The notes: generated from the letters alone by a model not told the origin. A stretch of 64,000 bases of DNA from an uncultured Verrucomicrobiae bacterium (GCA_963706715.1 CAVPNI010000003.1:736001-800000), one strand, 5' to 3'. Shown: positions 19,692 through 31,200, counted from the stretch's first letter. Program-made: numbers and translations.

Positions 19692-19937
19692 TTAATTCCG
19701 TTTCTTTGCAAGAGGGTCTCTACTCAGGCTATCGAAAATATACTGGCAAGCTTCCTCCTCAGTGATAAACCAACGTTCTCCAAGCCGTTGGCCGCGCTCG
19801 CTAGCATACACACACCAACCACCAGACTGTGGACGCTCTAACACAAGACTTTGATCCCGGACCTCTCCATCAAGTGAGGCATAGCGTGTATCAACACCTT
19901 CCTTCTCTAATTTTTCTTTCAGTTGCGGAACATTCAT
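19692..19937 (-). CDS. candidate TNT immunity protein, cassette C1
   Basis: ATGA overlap with the toxin; W.VY.SERG...F..EEEAC.Y pattern like TNT-associated antitoxins. Confidence 0.75.
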   Translation of the reverse strand: MNVPQLKEKLEKEGVDTRYASLDGEVRDQSLVLERPQSGGWCVYASERGQRLGERWFITEEEACQYIFDSLSRDPLAKKRN

Positions 19938-20911
19938 TTCGACTTCAATACTCCTATATCAATTAATTGTTGAACGCTTAACGGAAGTTGATGCTGAATT
20001 CCTAGACCCGGAGACCCAAAGCCAGGAGCAGATAACCCGGTTTTCACTTGAAATGGTTGAAGCACCTCGTAAGCCTCGTAGGCTACCCCACTTTCATAGC
20101 TGGCAGGTAGTCCTCTGCTTGAAAAGGGCGTTCCCTTTGGAGCAACATAATAACCAGTAGCTCGTGGACCAAATCTATCAATCAAGGTACCAGCCGTCAG
20201 TTCAGTTTCAGTAACACTGCCAAGAAAACCTGCATTACCAGGCCAACTAGTCGGAGTCGCTTGTCCTGAATACGGAACTAAAGCTTTTGTTTGGACGCTA
20301 GCAGCCGAACCCGGCTTCCCAAACAGCGGTTTGACGCCCGATGTAGCAATAGCTCCCTTAGAAGCAATCTTTGTAGGTGCAGAACCCGGTGCAATAATAA
20401 CCGACCCTGCCGCTACGGTAGTAGCCACCAGCGAATTCGGATCATAGAGACCTGCACGAGCATTCGGGGAAAGCCTTTCATTGAGCCAAGCTGCCTGAGC
20501 GTGCAGATGACCTGCCTGCATACCCATTAAATTCATCCCGTATCCCATTGCACTAGAGAGAAGCGAAATCCCTCCCGGCACGGCATCCAGAACCGTATCT
20601 GCAATTGAGTGACTTAGGTTACTGGCTTGTGCTCCGGCATTTTGAAGAAACGGAGTTGCAATTCTTCCAGTGGGATCGGTGTAGACAACGGGGTATGTCT
20701 GTTCTGATGCGATTTGCCAGGATATTTGGATTTTATCCTGTTGATTTACAGAGAGAACGATGATTTTTGGCAGGCTCGTTTGGAGACTGTTGTAAAAAAT
20801 TTTCCAGACGCTGTTTTTTGATGCATCAGGCAGACACGTCCAGACAGCAGCTATGATCCATAGAGCAAGAAGCCATGAAGGCAGGAGTATTCTTTTAGCT
20901 GCGGGGAACAT
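19934..20911 (-). CDS. toxin cassette C1 with TNT (DUF4237) NADase-like tip
   Basis: PVVYTDPTG; WPGNAGF, IDRFG, GTPFSSRGLP, YEVLQP and PGLGIQ motifs. Confidence 0.85.
   Translation of the reverse strand: MFPAAKRILLPSWLLALWIIAAVWTCLPDASKNSVWKIFYNSLQTSLPKIIVLSVNQQDKIQISWQIASEQTYPVVYTDPTGRIATPFLQNAGAQASNLSHSIADTVLDAVPGGISLLSSAMGYGMNLMGMQAGHLHAQAAWLNERLSPNARAGLYDPNSLVATTVAAGSVIIAPGSAPTKIASKGAIATSGVKPLFGKPGSAASVQTKALVPYSGQATPTSWPGNAGFLGSVTETELTAGTLIDRFGPRATGYYVAPKGTPFSSRGLPASYESGVAYEAYEVLQPFQVKTGLSAPGFGSPGLGIQHQLPLSVQQLIDIGVLKSK
20304..20692. repeat. 389-bp direct repeat, copy 1
   Basis: Identical by eye to 28649-29037. Confidence 0.92.
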
Positions 20912-20955
20912 GGCAAGCAGCTAAGGATAAGCAGCTAAATAAAGAAGGCGAGTTT

Positions 20956-27896: not shown

Positions 27897-28024
27897 GAAG
27901 AAGGAAGATCCAAACAGCAGTAATGCCGTCGGAAAGTGGCATTTTTTCCTCCGTATTGAGCATAAGCAGCTAAAAATAAAAACGAGCACCGGGATCCAAA
28001 ATTATTTGTTCTCTCGGAGCTTTT

Positions 28025-28270
28025 TTAGGCATCAAAACAATGTGGGATCGCAAGGAATTCCAACCCCTCATCAATACCTTGTTTGATCTCTTGACGCCTC
28101 GCATTTGGGATCTGGCTTATCGCAACCGTAATGACCCTATCAACTCCTATTTCAATAGGTACGATAGTAACGTCACTGCTTTCGATGTAGTGAAGTTGAT
28201 CCCGTTTCGCGATCTTAACTTCAAAGGCTTCAGTACGAGCCGAATTTGGACCGGTTTTGGTAAAGTTCAT
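28025..28270 (-). CDS. candidate immunity protein for the Rhs tip
   Basis: 81 aa, ATGA overlap with the Rhs stop. Confidence 0.7.
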   Translation of the reverse strand: MNFTKTGPNSARTEAFEVKIAKRDQLHYIESSDVTIVPIEIGVDRVITVAISQIPNARRQEIKQGIDEGLEFLAIPHCFDA

Positions 28271-31200
28271 TTGTAGATAATCTTTGTTTTCCAGGGCTGT
28301 GTTGCATCTTGAATGATGATTTTGTTGACGTTGGGATTGAGCATGAGCGTAGGTTTTTCGATTTTACTCCAGATGCTTGTTGGACTAGCCCCACCTGTCC
28401 ATGCCCTTACAACTCCAGAAGCTTCGGAGGCAAACTGACGTGAGAGATTTTCCCAAGGCACAATTGCCTGATCATATGGAAATTTAGAGAACAAGTCCTG
28501 AGCATCGAGTGCTTGTCCCGCAGAAGTCTTTTCAAGTGTCGTTAATCCTGACATTTCAGCCGCCGATCGATTTGCTCCTGCTCTTCCAGACCAGAATGCA
28601 GCTTTATCGCTTGCTGTACTGACTCCTGACGACACAACATCTGCAACCGCCGAACCCGGCTTCCCAAACAGCGGTTTGACGCCCGATGTAGCAATAGCTC
28701 CCTTAGAAGCAATCTTTGTAGGTGCAGAACCCGGTGCAATAATAACCGACCCTGCCGCTACGGTAGTAGCCACCAGCGAATTCGGATCATAGAGACCTGC
28801 ACGAGCATTCGGGGAAAGCCTTTCATTGAGCCAAGCTGCCTGAGCGTGCAGATGACCTGCCTGCATACCCATTAAATTCATCCCGTATCCCATTGCACTA
28901 GAGAGAAGCGAAATCCCTCCCGGCACGGCATCCAGAACCGTATCTGCAATTGAGTGACTTAGGTTACTGGCTTGTGCTCCGGCATTTTGAAGAAACGGAG
29001 TTGCAATTCTTCCAGTGGGATCGGTGTAGACAACGGGATTTCCTAGAGCGTAGCTAAGAAGGTCAAAACTTCCGGCGTGGCCGAGAGGATCGGGGGAAAT
29101 AAATTCTCCAAAATCCGAATCGTAATCGCGCTCTCCAATTCTGGTGTATCCCGTTTCATCCAGTCTTTTTCCTAACCAATGTGAAACTTGCGCGAGGTCG
29201 CGGTAGGGGGAAAGGGGCAAGGATAATGCTCCTGGAATTGGTCCATAGCCGCCAACAGCAGTGGGTGTTCCTTGAATGTTAGTCCCATCGTGCATTGCAA
29301 CGATGTGTCCCAAGGCGTTATGGATCATTCCATAGTTCTTGGCTGGTGTGAGAATTTCTTCTAAGCCTCCAATGCCCTGGAGTCCGCCATGGGTTCCATC
29401 TTTATCTACTCCATATAGTTTCCAGGTGGGGGCTTGGTTATTGAGTTTTATTCCCACTTCCAAAAACTCAACGTTCGGATCGTAATAGCTGAGGATTGTC
29501 TGGGTTTTCGCTGTCTGGGCGTTTCCGGCTATTAAGGGGGTGTGGACGGTTTTTAGTCTTCTTCCAAAGCCGTCATAGATCGCAGTCCAGTTGTAGCCAT
29601 TGTTTTGTTCGTCTCGCTCGGTTACTGCGGCAAGCCGTCCCCAAGCGTCCCAGGTGTGTTCTTTGGTGGTTTTCTTATTCCGATCTGTTGGATCAACTGT
29701 TTCTTTTTTGGTCAGGTAGCCCTCTTTGTCAAAGTTCCGAATGATTTCTCGCGGCTGCGGGGTTACGCTAAAGTTGCAGGCCGGATGGGGCGGACAAAGG
29801 GAGATTGCGTTATCAGGGTTAATTGCCGATGCTGTTACTGAGTATATTCCCGGTGTTAAGGCAATAGGTACGCTCCAAGTGCCGTTTTCTCCGGAGGGCC
29901 GCACCGGATCGTATTTTAGTCCATTAATAGCAATTTGGATTTGCTCGCTATGCCGAGTTGTTCCTGCTATGTTTGATTTCCAGGTTCCACGAGTAGTTGT
30001 TGCCAGATGCGCTCTTCCCCAATTGTCTTTTTGTGTGACTTTATGTTCAAAAGCAGGATGGTTCTCTCCGTAGGAGGGATGGCTAACTTTGGTGCGAATT
30101 CCTAAGCCGCCATCTTGTGTATTTTCATCAAATTCATAGCTCAAAAGATGGCCTGCCGCTGTTTTTTCTGTTAGGAGTTGTCCTCGGCTATTGTAGGAAT
30201 ATTGTCTCTCTTGAACGACTCCTCCGCCTACTTGGAGTTGATATGTTTTCGGGAATGAATTCGCCAACCAGGTCAGTTTTTCATTGAGAAGCGTGGCACC
30301 TCCACTTTCTGTTGCTACGTTCTCCAGTCTTCCTAGGCTGTCGTGTATCAGGGTTTGGCTCAAGTTGGCTTTTCTCCGCTGGGTCAGTATCCCATTGGTT
30401 CCATAGGAATAGGTGATTGCTCGGTTTTGTCTAGGCAGAAGGATGTTGCTCAAGAGGTTATCGGCGCGATGTATAAAGTTTTGTTCCAGGTCTCCCAGGT
30501 TAAATCCGCTCCGGCGTCCGGCCCCATCCCATTTCTGAGTGACGTTTTGGTGAATGGCTCCGGCAATGGTGATGGTTTCTTCGGTGATGTTTCCATATGG
30601 GCTGTAGGAGCGGCTGATTTTTATGGGATCTCCAGCGCCCGTTTGGAGAAGGGAGGTTAGGTGTCCTCGCCGATCCCAAGCAAATTCCTGGCTCCCGGTG
30701 ATCGAACCTGTGGTGGCGATTTGTTTTACGGGTCCTAATGGGTGGTAGGTAAATGTGTGGGTCAGTTGCCGAGCATCGGTAACGCTTTTCAGCCGTCCGA
30801 TATTGCTTCCTTCGCTGTAGTAGGTGTATGTTCTCTCTCTGGCGTCTCCTCCTTTTCCACGGAGGTATTCTGTAAGTTTGCGACCAGCTTTGTCGTATGT
30901 GGCATGCCACTGCAGGTCTTCGGAACCGGGCAGATTCCATTGGAGAAGGTTGCCTGCCACATCGTGGAGGAAGTTTGTTCGGGCTCCGCCAGGGAGTGTG
31001 GTGCTCTCAAGTCTCTCTAAGGCATCGTATGTATGGAGGGTTTTGTTTCCTACTCCATCACTAAAGGCAGTCAGGTTTCCATTATGGTCGTACTCAAATT
31101 GTTCTTTGGTTTTGTCCGCAAAGGTTTTTAATAGCGGATTTCCTAAGTGATCAAAGTAGGTCGTTGTTGTAACCGCGTAGGTTCCGCTTCCCTCGGTTTG

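Follow-up and report, generated by a model that had tools for sequence, protein, structure and literature searches.

The region described here lies in a window of 64,000 nucleotides (nt), positions 736001-800000 of contig C3 in the 3.04-Mb, four-contig genome of an uncultured Verrucomicrobiae bacterium (genome G000). The window carries a full-length Rhs gene, an array of orphan Rhs toxin tips and, between the two, a set of genes for replication and recombination. The sequence supports the view that these genes belong to a discrete mobile element placed between the current tip/immunity pair of the Rhs gene and a displaced TNT toxin tip. The features are listed in Table 1; the orphan tips of the window are named cassettes C1 to C4, which are distinct from contigs C1, C3 and C4 of the assembly. 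A scan for open reading frames (ORFs) and Pfam domains confirmed the contents that the original prediction, made from the sequence alone, had listed between the two copies of a 389-bp repeat, namely a tip, an immunity ORF, debris of insertion sequences (IS), an XRE regulator, a primase, a recombinase and a leader.

Table 1. Features of the window in and around the element, with positions counted from the first nucleotide of the window.
Feature	Position	Strand	Evidence
Full-length Rhs gene, 3046 aa	28267..37407	-	Pfam RHS_repeat 5.9e-40, DUF6531 3.9e-15; C-terminal alignment
Rhs core portion of 28267..37407	down to 29038, ending ...PDPLGHAGSFDLLSYALGN; then pre-toxin segment and current tip	-	Read from the sequence
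Repeat copy 1: pre-toxin segment PVVYTDPTG...VKPLFGKPGSA fused to Rhs core	28649..29037	-	389 nt, 100% identical to copy 2
Current toxin domain, 127 aa, single copy in the genome	28267..28648	-	Weak Pfam match to ADP-ribosyl cyclase, E 0.0019, below cut-off
ORF of 81 aa that overlaps the Rhs stop codon; presumably the immunity gene for the current tip	28025..28270	-	No Pfam family; role inferred from position
IS630-type IS fragment (DDE_3), 336 nt	27562..27897		Pfam 4.8e-20; >15 genomic copies at 98.5-100%
Tn5/IS4-type IS (transposase 26199-27554) inserted in the element	26118..27561	+	Pfam Dimer_Tnp_Tn5 2e-34
Remnant of a conserved 100-aa ORF (XRE-primase interval in relatives), 5' end lost to the IS	25852..26109	-	tblastn in relatives
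XRE-family helix-turn-helix (HTH) regulator, divergent from the primase gene	25199..25660	+	Pfam HTH_3 5.4e-12; NCBIfam RstR-like below cut-off; position conserved in relatives
Replication protein, 1024 aa: N-terminal DnaG-type primase (Zn ribbon and Toprim), C-terminal P-loop half with MCM-like fold	22047..25121	-	
Tyrosine recombinase, 362 aa, XerC subfamily	20956..22044	-	Pfam Phage_integrase 1.9e-38; NF002331 421 bits vs cut-off 371
Leader, 73 codons from ATG, hydrophobic, signal-peptide-like	20693..20911	-	Ends ...GAACAGACATAC directly before the tip; same in 4/4 copies
Repeat copy 2: pre-toxin segment fused to the leader	20304..20692	-	100% identical to copy 1
Displaced TNT (NAD+ glycohydrolase-type) toxin domain, cassette C1	19934..20303	-	Pfam TNT 7.5e-25 on ORF 19934-20911
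81-aa ORF, presumed immunity gene of the TNT tip	19692..19937	-	Position only
Three further orphan cassettes: C2 18777-19685, C3 17440-18312 (TNT domain), C4 16203-16973	16203..19685	-	Small ORFs between

A repeat search of the window and a BLAST search against the whole genome showed that positions 20304-20692 and 28649-29037 are identical over 389 nt at a spacing of 8,345 bp, with unique flanks, exactly as predicted. The repeat has ten genomic BLAST matches, and this is the sole pair at 100% (the runner-up reaches 76%); because the pre-toxin segments elsewhere in the genome are only 63-84% identical to one another, the identity of the repeat goes beyond the family background. On the coding (minus) strand both copies open at CCC, the codon for the P of PVVYTDPTG, and close after ...GGTTCGGC (GKPGSA). 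This start corresponds to the second half of the DPxG...PxxxxDPxG motif that closes the Rhs core. Outside the repeat, the sequences of the two copies are unrelated on both sides: the left partners are the Rhs core (...PDPLGHAGSFDLLSYALGN) in one case and the 73-codon leader in the other, and to the right the Rhs copy continues into a unique 127-aa domain and the leader copy into a TNT domain. Both copies are in frame with their own ORFs (37407-29037 = 8370 and 20911-20692 = 219, each divisible by 3), and therefore the deletion of one 8,345-bp unit would yield an in-frame Rhs-TNT gene, so that the restoration proposed earlier holds arithmetically.

Several observations identify the locus as an Rhs locus. 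It encodes an RHS/YD-repeat protein whose core closes with the DPxG...PxxxxDPxG motif (PDPLGHAGSFDLLSYALGNPVVYTDPTG); the tips diverge after GKPGSA, with TNT domains in cassettes C1 and C3 and a small ORF, presumably for immunity, after each tip; and the orphan tips are homologous to the 3' part of the main gene, cassette C1 at 100% over 389 nt. Cassettes C2-C4 have 26-45% protein identity with the main Rhs protein over the alignment, with pre-toxin blocks in common. Two unrelated repeats were also noted in the window: a repeat of about 215-223 nt at 16995-17217, between cassettes C3 and C4, that resembles a miniature inverted-repeat transposable element and has more than 20 copies on all four contigs (84-100%), and a repeat of about 165 nt at 42427-42592 with dozens of matches (69-77%) in both larger congeners, which is probably a genus-wide small mobile element or one similar to repetitive extragenic palindromes.

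The replication protein matches DnaG primases by sequence at residues 1-365 alone (Pfam, NCBIfam and PDB; TIGR01391 2.6e-50, below its cut-off), with PDB primases aligning to residues 3-351. Residues 430-1024 were modelled with ten aligned relatives (mean predicted local distance difference test score 65.8, predicted template-modelling score 0.53), and a Foldseek search of this model against PDB ranked MCM helicase chains first (best E 6.6e-08, template-modelling score about 0.33). The second half of the earlier label "primase-helicase" is consequently favoured by the fold search and has no sequence match beyond residue 365; with moderate confidence in the model, the label appears reasonable. 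The recombinase exceeds the cut-off of the XerC model NF002331 (Table 1), the R...K...HxxR...H...Y residues of the catalytic pattern are visible in its sequence, and it looks intact, as had been stated. The integron-integrase models stay far below their cut-offs (TIGR02249, 109 bits vs 265; NF011946, 72 vs 435). The two functions of an integrative element can therefore be recognized: for replication, DnaG-type primase domains joined to an MCM-like fold of moderate model confidence, and for recombination, a protein at 421 bits vs 371 with visible RHR-Y residues. A palindrome, CAGGATA-N9-TATCCTG, is located inside the leader at 20718-20740; genome-wide it occurs only in four leaders, and no partner site was found elsewhere in the genome.

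The backbone consisting of XRE, primase, recombinase and leader was found four times in this genome by tblastn and blastn, at about 99.6-100% identity. Window positions 20693-26118 match contig C1 12298-6873 (99.96% over 5,426 nt), contig C1 5905-12332 matches contig C3 965152-958725 (99.84%), and the fourth copy, at contig C3 966552-969877 (99.67%), is cut by the contig end inside its primase gene. All four leaders end with ...ATCGCATCAGAACAGACATAC and are followed, without any gap, by the P/G codon that opens P/GxxxxDPTG, and the four tips that follow differ from the first base onwards (PVVYTDPTGRIAT..., GINWTDPTGRFGK..., PTNWTDPTGRIAT... and PVNYVDPTGRFGK..., encoding PVVYT, GINWT, PTNWT and PVNYV). 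The right (leader) end of the element is precise in 4/4 copies; the left end of the window copy is obscured by IS. Because the leader and its end are the same in four copies and the tips are different, the "C1 leader" has to be reassigned from cassette C1, of which it had been considered a part, to the element.

On the XRE side, a tip and a small ORF again precede the backbone in the three copies (3/3) that are assembled there. In the window copy this is the current Rhs tip. In the contig-C1 copy the tip has a weak DUF4258 match and begins at the very start of the contig, the other end of which is an Rhs core stopping at ...LAKND. On the XRE side of the third copy lies the tip that follows the fourth, so that the third and fourth copies are in tandem. 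A long identical repeat at both junctions occurs in the window copy only, and in the others the motif P..[WY].DPTGR alone is common with the upstream junction. The contig-C1 copy is the fullest, with an immunity ORF, an IS630, two small ORFs, a relaxase, a second XRE, the 100-aa ORF and the backbone; its relaxase-helicase of 948 aa is of the TrwC/MobF type (TrwC 1.3e-75; NF041492 MobF 212 bits vs cut-off 100). The window copy has no relaxase. Its backbone identity with contig C1 stops at 26118, where the Tn5/IS4-type IS, at a position equivalent to contig C1 6873, cuts short a small ORF and occupies the place of the second XRE and relaxase segment; from this position to the immunity ORF the window copy has been replaced by IS sequence, and the relaxase and the second XRE are lost. 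In two copies the immunity gene is followed by a conserved stretch; this was considered as a possible element end and was rejected, as it represents cassette-level homology found at three other genomic places.

A decayed relative is present on contig C4 at 226000-245900 (L013), with a TrwC relaxase that is 79.5% identical at the DNA level and is cut by ISL3. Next to it are orphan tips, which lie downstream of an Rhs gene that has an LHH nuclease as its tip and is accompanied by a SUKH immunity gene, and an IS66 transposase ORF in the same region is fused to an Rhs pre-toxin stretch.

Cassettes C2-C4 each possess their own ATG and a hydrophobic leader of a second type (...SLETRIGLFCNGN; ...LLLLLIGTTSVLARVVSSSSAFLHRSLETRIGLFCNGN), which is joined at the same boundary as the leader of the element (type 1). 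Differences among type-2 leaders at third vs other codon positions were 10 vs 6 and 6, 10 vs 7 and 5, and 17 vs 9 and 9, a pattern compatible with coding, although not decisive. An attC-like fold of these inter-cassette leaders was rejected, with z values of +0.79 and -0.36 for the coding strand and +0.39 for one complement; the type-1 leader gave z values of -1.37 and -2.46 for its DNA fold, values that a single 7-bp palindrome accounts for. Homology between leaders extends throughout the order and, in a looser form, to other phyla. The leaders start with ATG, usually read in frame into the tip and consist of a hydrophobic stretch followed by a short motif, E-[TKN]-[RP]-[IVH]-x-G or NRVW. Examples of the motif from Verrucomicrobiota to Acidobacteriota are ETRIG, ENRVW and EKPHPG, and sites include window 20693-20911 and 19530-19685, L048 15899-16100 and L104 14720-14910, among others. 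By eye, the leaders look like Sec signal peptides.

In order to describe the junctions, 22 regular-expression hits of the core-end motif in this genome were inspected together with their flanking DNA, and the same tip starts were found behind different left partners: the core, a type-1 leader or a type-2 leader. The start GGAATCAACTGGACAGATCC... is preceded by the type-1 leader on contig C1, by a type-2 leader at contig C4 11046, by a core end at contig C4 21007 and by a third context, and CCAATTGAATATACTGATCC... is preceded both by the core and by a type-2 leader. Recombination break-points in this genome thus accumulate at one nucleotide position. The leader|PVNYVDPTG junction of another copy of the element in this organism is confirmed by one metagenome contig, which stems from an unrelated run. 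Additionally, the first nucleotide of contig C1 lies 7 nt, and that of contig C4 6 nt, ahead of an Rhs core/tip boundary. The end of contig C1 (830238, ...LAKND) and its start have about 8 nt in common, apart from one mismatch, and if joined would continue the reading frame; this break is without a long repeat to explain it, and alternative joins in the reads are one possible cause.

Among 401 sampled genomes of the order, a primase relative was detected in 16 (E <= 1e-40), and the genomic context was retrieved in all 15 besides the present one. The module of divergent XRE, 100-aa ORF, primase and recombinase is conserved in the order, and distant members have two tandem recombinases. In 8/15 of these genomes an Rhs gene lies upstream and/or a leader-toxin ORF downstream of the recombinase. 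G183 has a 2969-aa Rhs gene upstream and a leader ORF downstream; G001 has an Rhs gene and an orphan upstream, its contig ending in the primase gene; G039 encodes a leader-DPEGL-HExxH toxin; G400 has a leader, an Rhs core end, a tip and a small ORF; G023 and G064 have an Rhs-like gene upstream and a leader (...E[TP]RIGLLCHNDP...) with a tip downstream; G332 has a leader (...KTRIGGF...) with a core end and a tip; and G070 has a leader-toxin followed by a YD protein. G064, moreover, has a repeated unit of 7,419 bp; the identity of 100% starts within the toxin domain, covers the immunity gene, XRE and primase and lasts until the contig ends. In this locus (L053, G064:C1:978000-996268), positions 6867-10850 and 14286-18269 are the repeated part of the unit, and the leader (..ETRIGLLCHNDPV|EGIPVNRERL..) is joined to the last ~80 residues of the upstream Rhs protein's own toxin, with an identical immunity gene next to it. 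As for the genus itself, it comprises two complete genomes of ~0.9 Mb, the present IS-laden one of 3.0 Mb and one of 2.5 Mb, which looks like a genome-reduction series; in the two ~0.9-Mb genomes neither the primase nor the recombinase has a relative.

A profile built from six primases was then compared with a collection of species-representative genomes, which gave 604 candidate stretches; at least 551 of these 604 encode a primase relative, and the best 79 loci were kept. The source labels of the loci, all of them metagenome-assembled genomes, are Acidobacteriota, Bryobacterales, Myxococcota, Verrucomicrobia/Spartobacteria, Planctomycetia, Gemmatimonadaceae and several Proteobacteria, and the primase family appears to be widespread, mostly in soil Acidobacteriota, Verrucomicrobiota and Myxococcota. 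A recombinase follows the primase in 64 of the 79 kept loci, and a relaxase was found in nine of the 79 by tblastn (on eight contigs). The Rhs core end was searched with the regular expression x[NDH][PA]x4-5D[PA]xG in an open stretch. Of the 45 loci with at least 600 bp of sequence after the recombinase, 21 had a co-oriented match within 3 kb; of the 42 with at least 2.5 kb before the primase, 25 had one within 6 kb; and 12 loci had a match on both sides. These fractions are rough, as they count regular-expression matches, a few of them in other parts of Rhs genes, and the choice of the first ORF overlooked some leaders. As a strand control over all 79 loci (887 kb), four matches were counted on the opposite strand vs 73 on the strand of the element. 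A tie of the element family to polymorphic-toxin tips is supported by these fractions and by 4/4 copies in the present genome; many loci are without the motif, and among the copies of this genome the long identical repeat is confined to the window.

The ORFs after the recombinase of these relatives carry Cytotoxic (colicin E3-type), WHH, LHH with PT-TG and Peptidase_M91 domains as well as RHS repeats (Pfam). In eight relatives (L068, L072, L075, L093, L105, L107, L117 and L137) a PIN/VapC-like or related small toxin gene is situated between the recombinase and the leader-tip ORF, and because of this gene the set carries a classical addiction module too.

When 88 loci were tested for end overlaps, seven whole contigs showed terminal direct overlaps of 81-198 nt at 97.5-100% identity; one contig at 93% was left out, and two short matches were dismissed because they were not end-to-end overlaps. 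Such overlaps are the mark left by assemblers on circular or tandemly repeated DNA. The seven contigs measure 7,077, 7,569, 7,638, 7,865, 8,112, 8,525 and 11,005 nt. After rotation, five of them read recombinase, VapC (in one), leader, Rhs core end NNPxxxxDPxG, tip, small ORF, XRE and primase; of the remaining two, one has a leader and a toxin-like ORF and the other a SUKH-family immunity gene and a TrwC relaxase. Judging from the rotated contigs, the smallest form of the element is about 7 kb and comprises tip, immunity gene, XRE, primase and recombinase. One metagenome-assembled genome contains both a putatively circular and an integrated relative (L077 and L075), which are only 85-90% identical. 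A clean attP/attL/attR triplet of attachment (att) sites could not be derived from this pair, in which the leader is followed by ~16 codons of Rhs core end and then by housekeeping genes.

An 827-kb Bryobacterales contig (L104) carries two backbones of 12.55 kb that are 99.5% identical. They are spaced at 14,953 bp and stand behind an Rhs gene whose tip is of the colicin-E5 type. This backbone comprises a TrwB-type coupling protein, a TrwC relaxase, the primase, the recombinase and the leader. Both leaders end with ...GACCGACTAGTTGG, and each is joined to a different Rhs fragment: one runs in frame into ...LDYFGARYFSGAQGRFTSPDP...NNPLKYTDPTGL, and the other runs out of frame into an earlier part of the Rhs core. 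A conserved palindrome, GGTTCCCGTATGGGAACC, which could be a terminator or a recombinase site, is located just after the immunity gene to the left of each backbone (L104 2240-2262 and 17180-17200); no counterpart was found in the genome of the window. In its constant backbone, its precise leader end and its variable slot for Rhs fragment, tip and immunity gene, the Bryobacterales pair matches the window.

As to the kind of element, the "satellite-like" character of the original prediction was not upheld. Among five backbone ORFs compared with PHROGs, only the primase and the integrase families were matched and the other three had no match. A phage satellite (P4-like, or of the phage-inducible chromosomal island type) was rejected, since helper-hijacking genes were not found among the five scanned ORFs and a conjugative relaxase is present instead, MobF on contig C1 and a relaxase together with a TrwB-type coupling protein in the Bryobacterales relative. 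An integrative mobilizable element or an integrative plasmid fits better as a comparison.

We regard the region as a single member of a widely distributed family of small replicons that are dedicated to modules of an Rhs tip and its immunity gene. We consider it probable that the element is a tip carrier that enters rhs genes at the core/tip boundary, and that the window holds an integrated, IS-damaged and plasmid-like copy of it. Window positions 20693-28648 together with one copy of the 389-bp repeat would represent the integrated element. Its backbone consists of the XRE regulator(s), the 100-aa ORF, the DnaG-primase/MCM-like protein, the XerC-family recombinase and the leader, to which fuller copies add a MobF relaxase and one relative a coupling protein; an Rhs C-terminal toxin module with its immunity gene would be the standing cargo. 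A circle with the order recombinase, leader, Rhs 3' fragment/tip, immunity gene, XRE and primase would recombine, at the core/tip boundary or close to it, with an rhs gene of the chromosome. By this event the tip and immunity gene of the circle would become the expressed end of the resident Rhs gene, and the previous tip, here TNT, would be pushed downstream behind the leader of the element as an orphan. The leader-side junction would, as we favour, be made by the element's own recombinase, and the 389-bp identical pre-toxin repeat would offer a RecA route for losing the 8,345-bp unit. The gene arrangement, the number of copies, the exact junctions, the conserved link with Rhs tips and the overlapping-end contigs are observed, whereas circularisation in this genome, the crossover enzyme, the direction in which tips were displaced, the functions in immunity and any transfer are inferred; the sequence is compatible with either tip of the window having been the incoming one. 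The earlier proposal of a replicon that re-arms polymorphic toxins is largely sustained, apart from the word satellite, by the four copies at Rhs tips, the 8/15 genomes of the order, the distribution across phyla and the overlapping-end contigs with tip and immunity gene.

Several points weigh against this reading. The core-end motif was not found in 24/45 loci downstream and in 17/42 upstream, and 7/15 genomes of the order are uninformative or negative (four contigs end at the recombinase, two are fragments, and G165 has no Rhs motif). At the junctions of the present genome the bases left of the boundary differ (..ACATAC in the leader vs ..GGAAAT in the cores), those on the right differ between tips, and neither a shared crossover sequence of 6-8 bp nor a conserved binding site was seen; because the junctions have no crossover bases in common, a classical homology-dependent tyrosine-recombinase reaction is not evident. 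A fixed target site is also argued against by the Bryobacterales backbones, whose Rhs partner is joined at two core positions, once out of frame. Xer-type recombinases on plasmids often serve only to resolve multimers. The overlapping-end contigs could be tandem arrays as well as circles, and the four backbones could be so alike because older copies were homogenised by gene conversion, and not because they were inserted recently. The window copy itself, which is without relaxase and second XRE and carries an IS, may no longer move. A circle, a joint or an empty site was not seen for this genome in public runs with contigs of low depth (2-4) from the same organism: the three public soil-metagenome runs, with 0.12, 0.07 and 0.00 of the words and no RNA run among them, gave read-sized contigs at this depth over 19900-29300. 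The flanks of the locus were also searched for an empty site in the two larger congeners, where only scattered fragments of 63-85% and no syntenic locus were found.

Two further readings concern the mechanism. The first, which we put forward tentatively, considers the element as the platform of an integron-like system. Its XerC-family recombinase would cut and join at the Rhs core/tip boundary, and tip/immunity cassettes would move among the leader of the element (a storage or carrier slot), leader-headed orphan arrays and the rhs 3' end (the expression slot), the platform itself replicating as a circle and being mobilised by conjugation. If this were true, the rhs orphan arrays of many soil phyla would be footprints of cassette traffic and not of chance homologous recombination. 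The second, which is a serious alternative even though we find it rather unlikely, is that homologous recombination alone is at work, in the manner of a Campbell integration and of the circle that Jackson et al. 2009 proposed (PMC2935791). RecA would then integrate and excise the circle through a core-end/pre-toxin arm, the Xer-like enzyme would resolve multimers, the leader|tip junction would be inherited, and the backbones would be alike by gene conversion. That the 389-bp repeat of 100% identity lies exactly at the two junctions of the window copy argues for this alternative, as do the G064 duplication, which begins inside the toxin domain and extends through the immunity gene at 100%, and the 15-110 codons of Rhs core end that putative circles and integrated relatives carry before the tip, as a homology model predicts; an att-like common core was not found at the junctions.

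The Campbell integration of the original prediction agrees with these same three observations, and is at odds with the presence of a long repeat in 1/4 copies only, the copies of contigs C1 and C3 having no long identical repeat at their two junctions, and with an identical leader end before four tips. Four different tip starts stand directly behind an identical leader, and two different Rhs fragments stand behind the Bryobacterales leader; homologous crossovers inside the tip cannot produce either pattern. The pattern needs a precise reaction at the leader end, or else old junctions with backbones homogenised by gene conversion. Moreover, the recombinase gene always adjoins the leader/tip junction, as integrases adjoin att sites. 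We place a leader junction made by the recombinase somewhat ahead of integration by RecA only.

It is improbable that the element is a generic integrative element which uses, or has been trapped in, rhs orphan arrays, so that the tips would be chromosomal neighbours and not cargo and the 389-bp repeat a product of local gene conversion. The genome is rich in IS and repeats, which rhs arrays collect, both flanks of the backbone vary between copies, and in some relatives a PIN/VapC gene and not a tip directly follows the recombinase. Against this, the overlapping-end contigs of 7-11 kb hold a tip and immunity gene with the backbone, the leader belongs to the conserved backbone and reads into the tip, and the association recurs in Verrucomicrobiota, Acidobacteriota, Myxococcota and others with a same-strand bias of 73 vs 4. 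An artefact, in which the repeat or the interval was mis-joined in a repeat-rich long-read assembly, is very improbable: the assembly does have four near-identical repeats of 5-6 kb and is interrupted at comparable sites (contig C3 stops within a primase copy, and contigs C1 and C4 start 6-7 nt before the core/tip boundary), but the same architecture is found in independent assemblies of other genomes, one of this organism's leader|tip junctions is confirmed by the metagenome contig of an unrelated run, and both copies of the 389-nt repeat have unique flanks.

In Rhs and related polymorphic toxins, the killing domain is changed when one C-terminal tip is replaced by another, and the model favoured since 2009 needs an episomal circle with a core fragment, a tip and an immunity gene; such a carrier has not been identified. 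A self-replicating, recombinase-bearing and sometimes mobilizable element with a tip/immunity pair as constant cargo would supply this missing vehicle and would explain the build-up of orphan arrays. As the toxin of the element would be fused to the delivery protein of the host, the immunity gene of the element would be indispensable to every cell, which amounts to addiction at the population level. We propose the element described here as a candidate for this carrier, which has long been postulated to bring new Rhs tips. A full-text literature search found only integrases or XerC/D near rhs arrays or polyimmunity loci and rAID-1, and no replicating, recombinase-bearing Rhs-tip element; most subscription journals are outside its coverage, so that absence is unproven. 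Snodgrassella and Gilliamella strains of the bee gut have integrase genes that recur beside rhs arrays in many strains, and Steele et al. 2017 (PMC5727410) suggested that these might aid Rhs transfer and capture. A preprint on the plasmidome of Planctomycetes mentions RHS proteins and integrases merely as frequent families on plasmids.

A close precedent is the model of Jackson et al. 2009 (PMC2935791), in which hypothetical episomal circles displace the C-terminal tips of rhs genes. As in that model, displaced tips that have retained part of the upstream region stand behind a full rhs gene, and a circle with a core fragment, a tip and intervening genes would insert by one crossover and shunt the old tip downstream. 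The circle is presented there as a passive by-product of recombination without genes for replication or transfer; here, in contrast, the carrier encodes a primase/MCM-like protein, a tyrosine recombinase and regulators, in some cases also a relaxase, and it is multi-copy and occurs in several phyla. With rAID-1 of Bacteroidales (Ross et al., bioRxiv 10.1101/471110) and with XerC/D near polyimmunity loci (Zhang et al. 2012, PMC3482391), the locus has in common an Xer-family recombinase that heads co-oriented toxin-related cassettes with repeats, for which active acquisition is suspected. Whereas rAID arrays store orphan immunity genes, the cassettes here consist of tip and immunity gene at the 3' end of a delivery gene; the platform also has replication and mobilisation genes, a replication gene not being mentioned in the part of the rAID-1 report available to us. 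The report of Steele et al. is confined to co-occurrence and defines neither an element nor its junctions, a replication gene or a circular form.

Like integrative mobilizable elements and integrative plasmids, the element combines an XRE regulator, a primase-helicase-like protein and a tyrosine recombinase with a MobF relaxase (contig C1) and a TrwB-type coupling protein (Bryobacterales). Those elements usually have tRNA or housekeeping genes as targets, with short att repeats, whereas here the position is the rhs 3' end and the conserved cargo slot is an Rhs tip read from the leader of the element. Finally, as in integrons, a recombinase gene is followed by co-oriented cassettes whose junctions fall, in this genome, at one precise point. 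It differs from integrons in that the recombinase is XerC and not IntI (TIGR02249, 109 vs 265) and that the inter-cassette DNA has no attC-like fold and reads as coding leaders.

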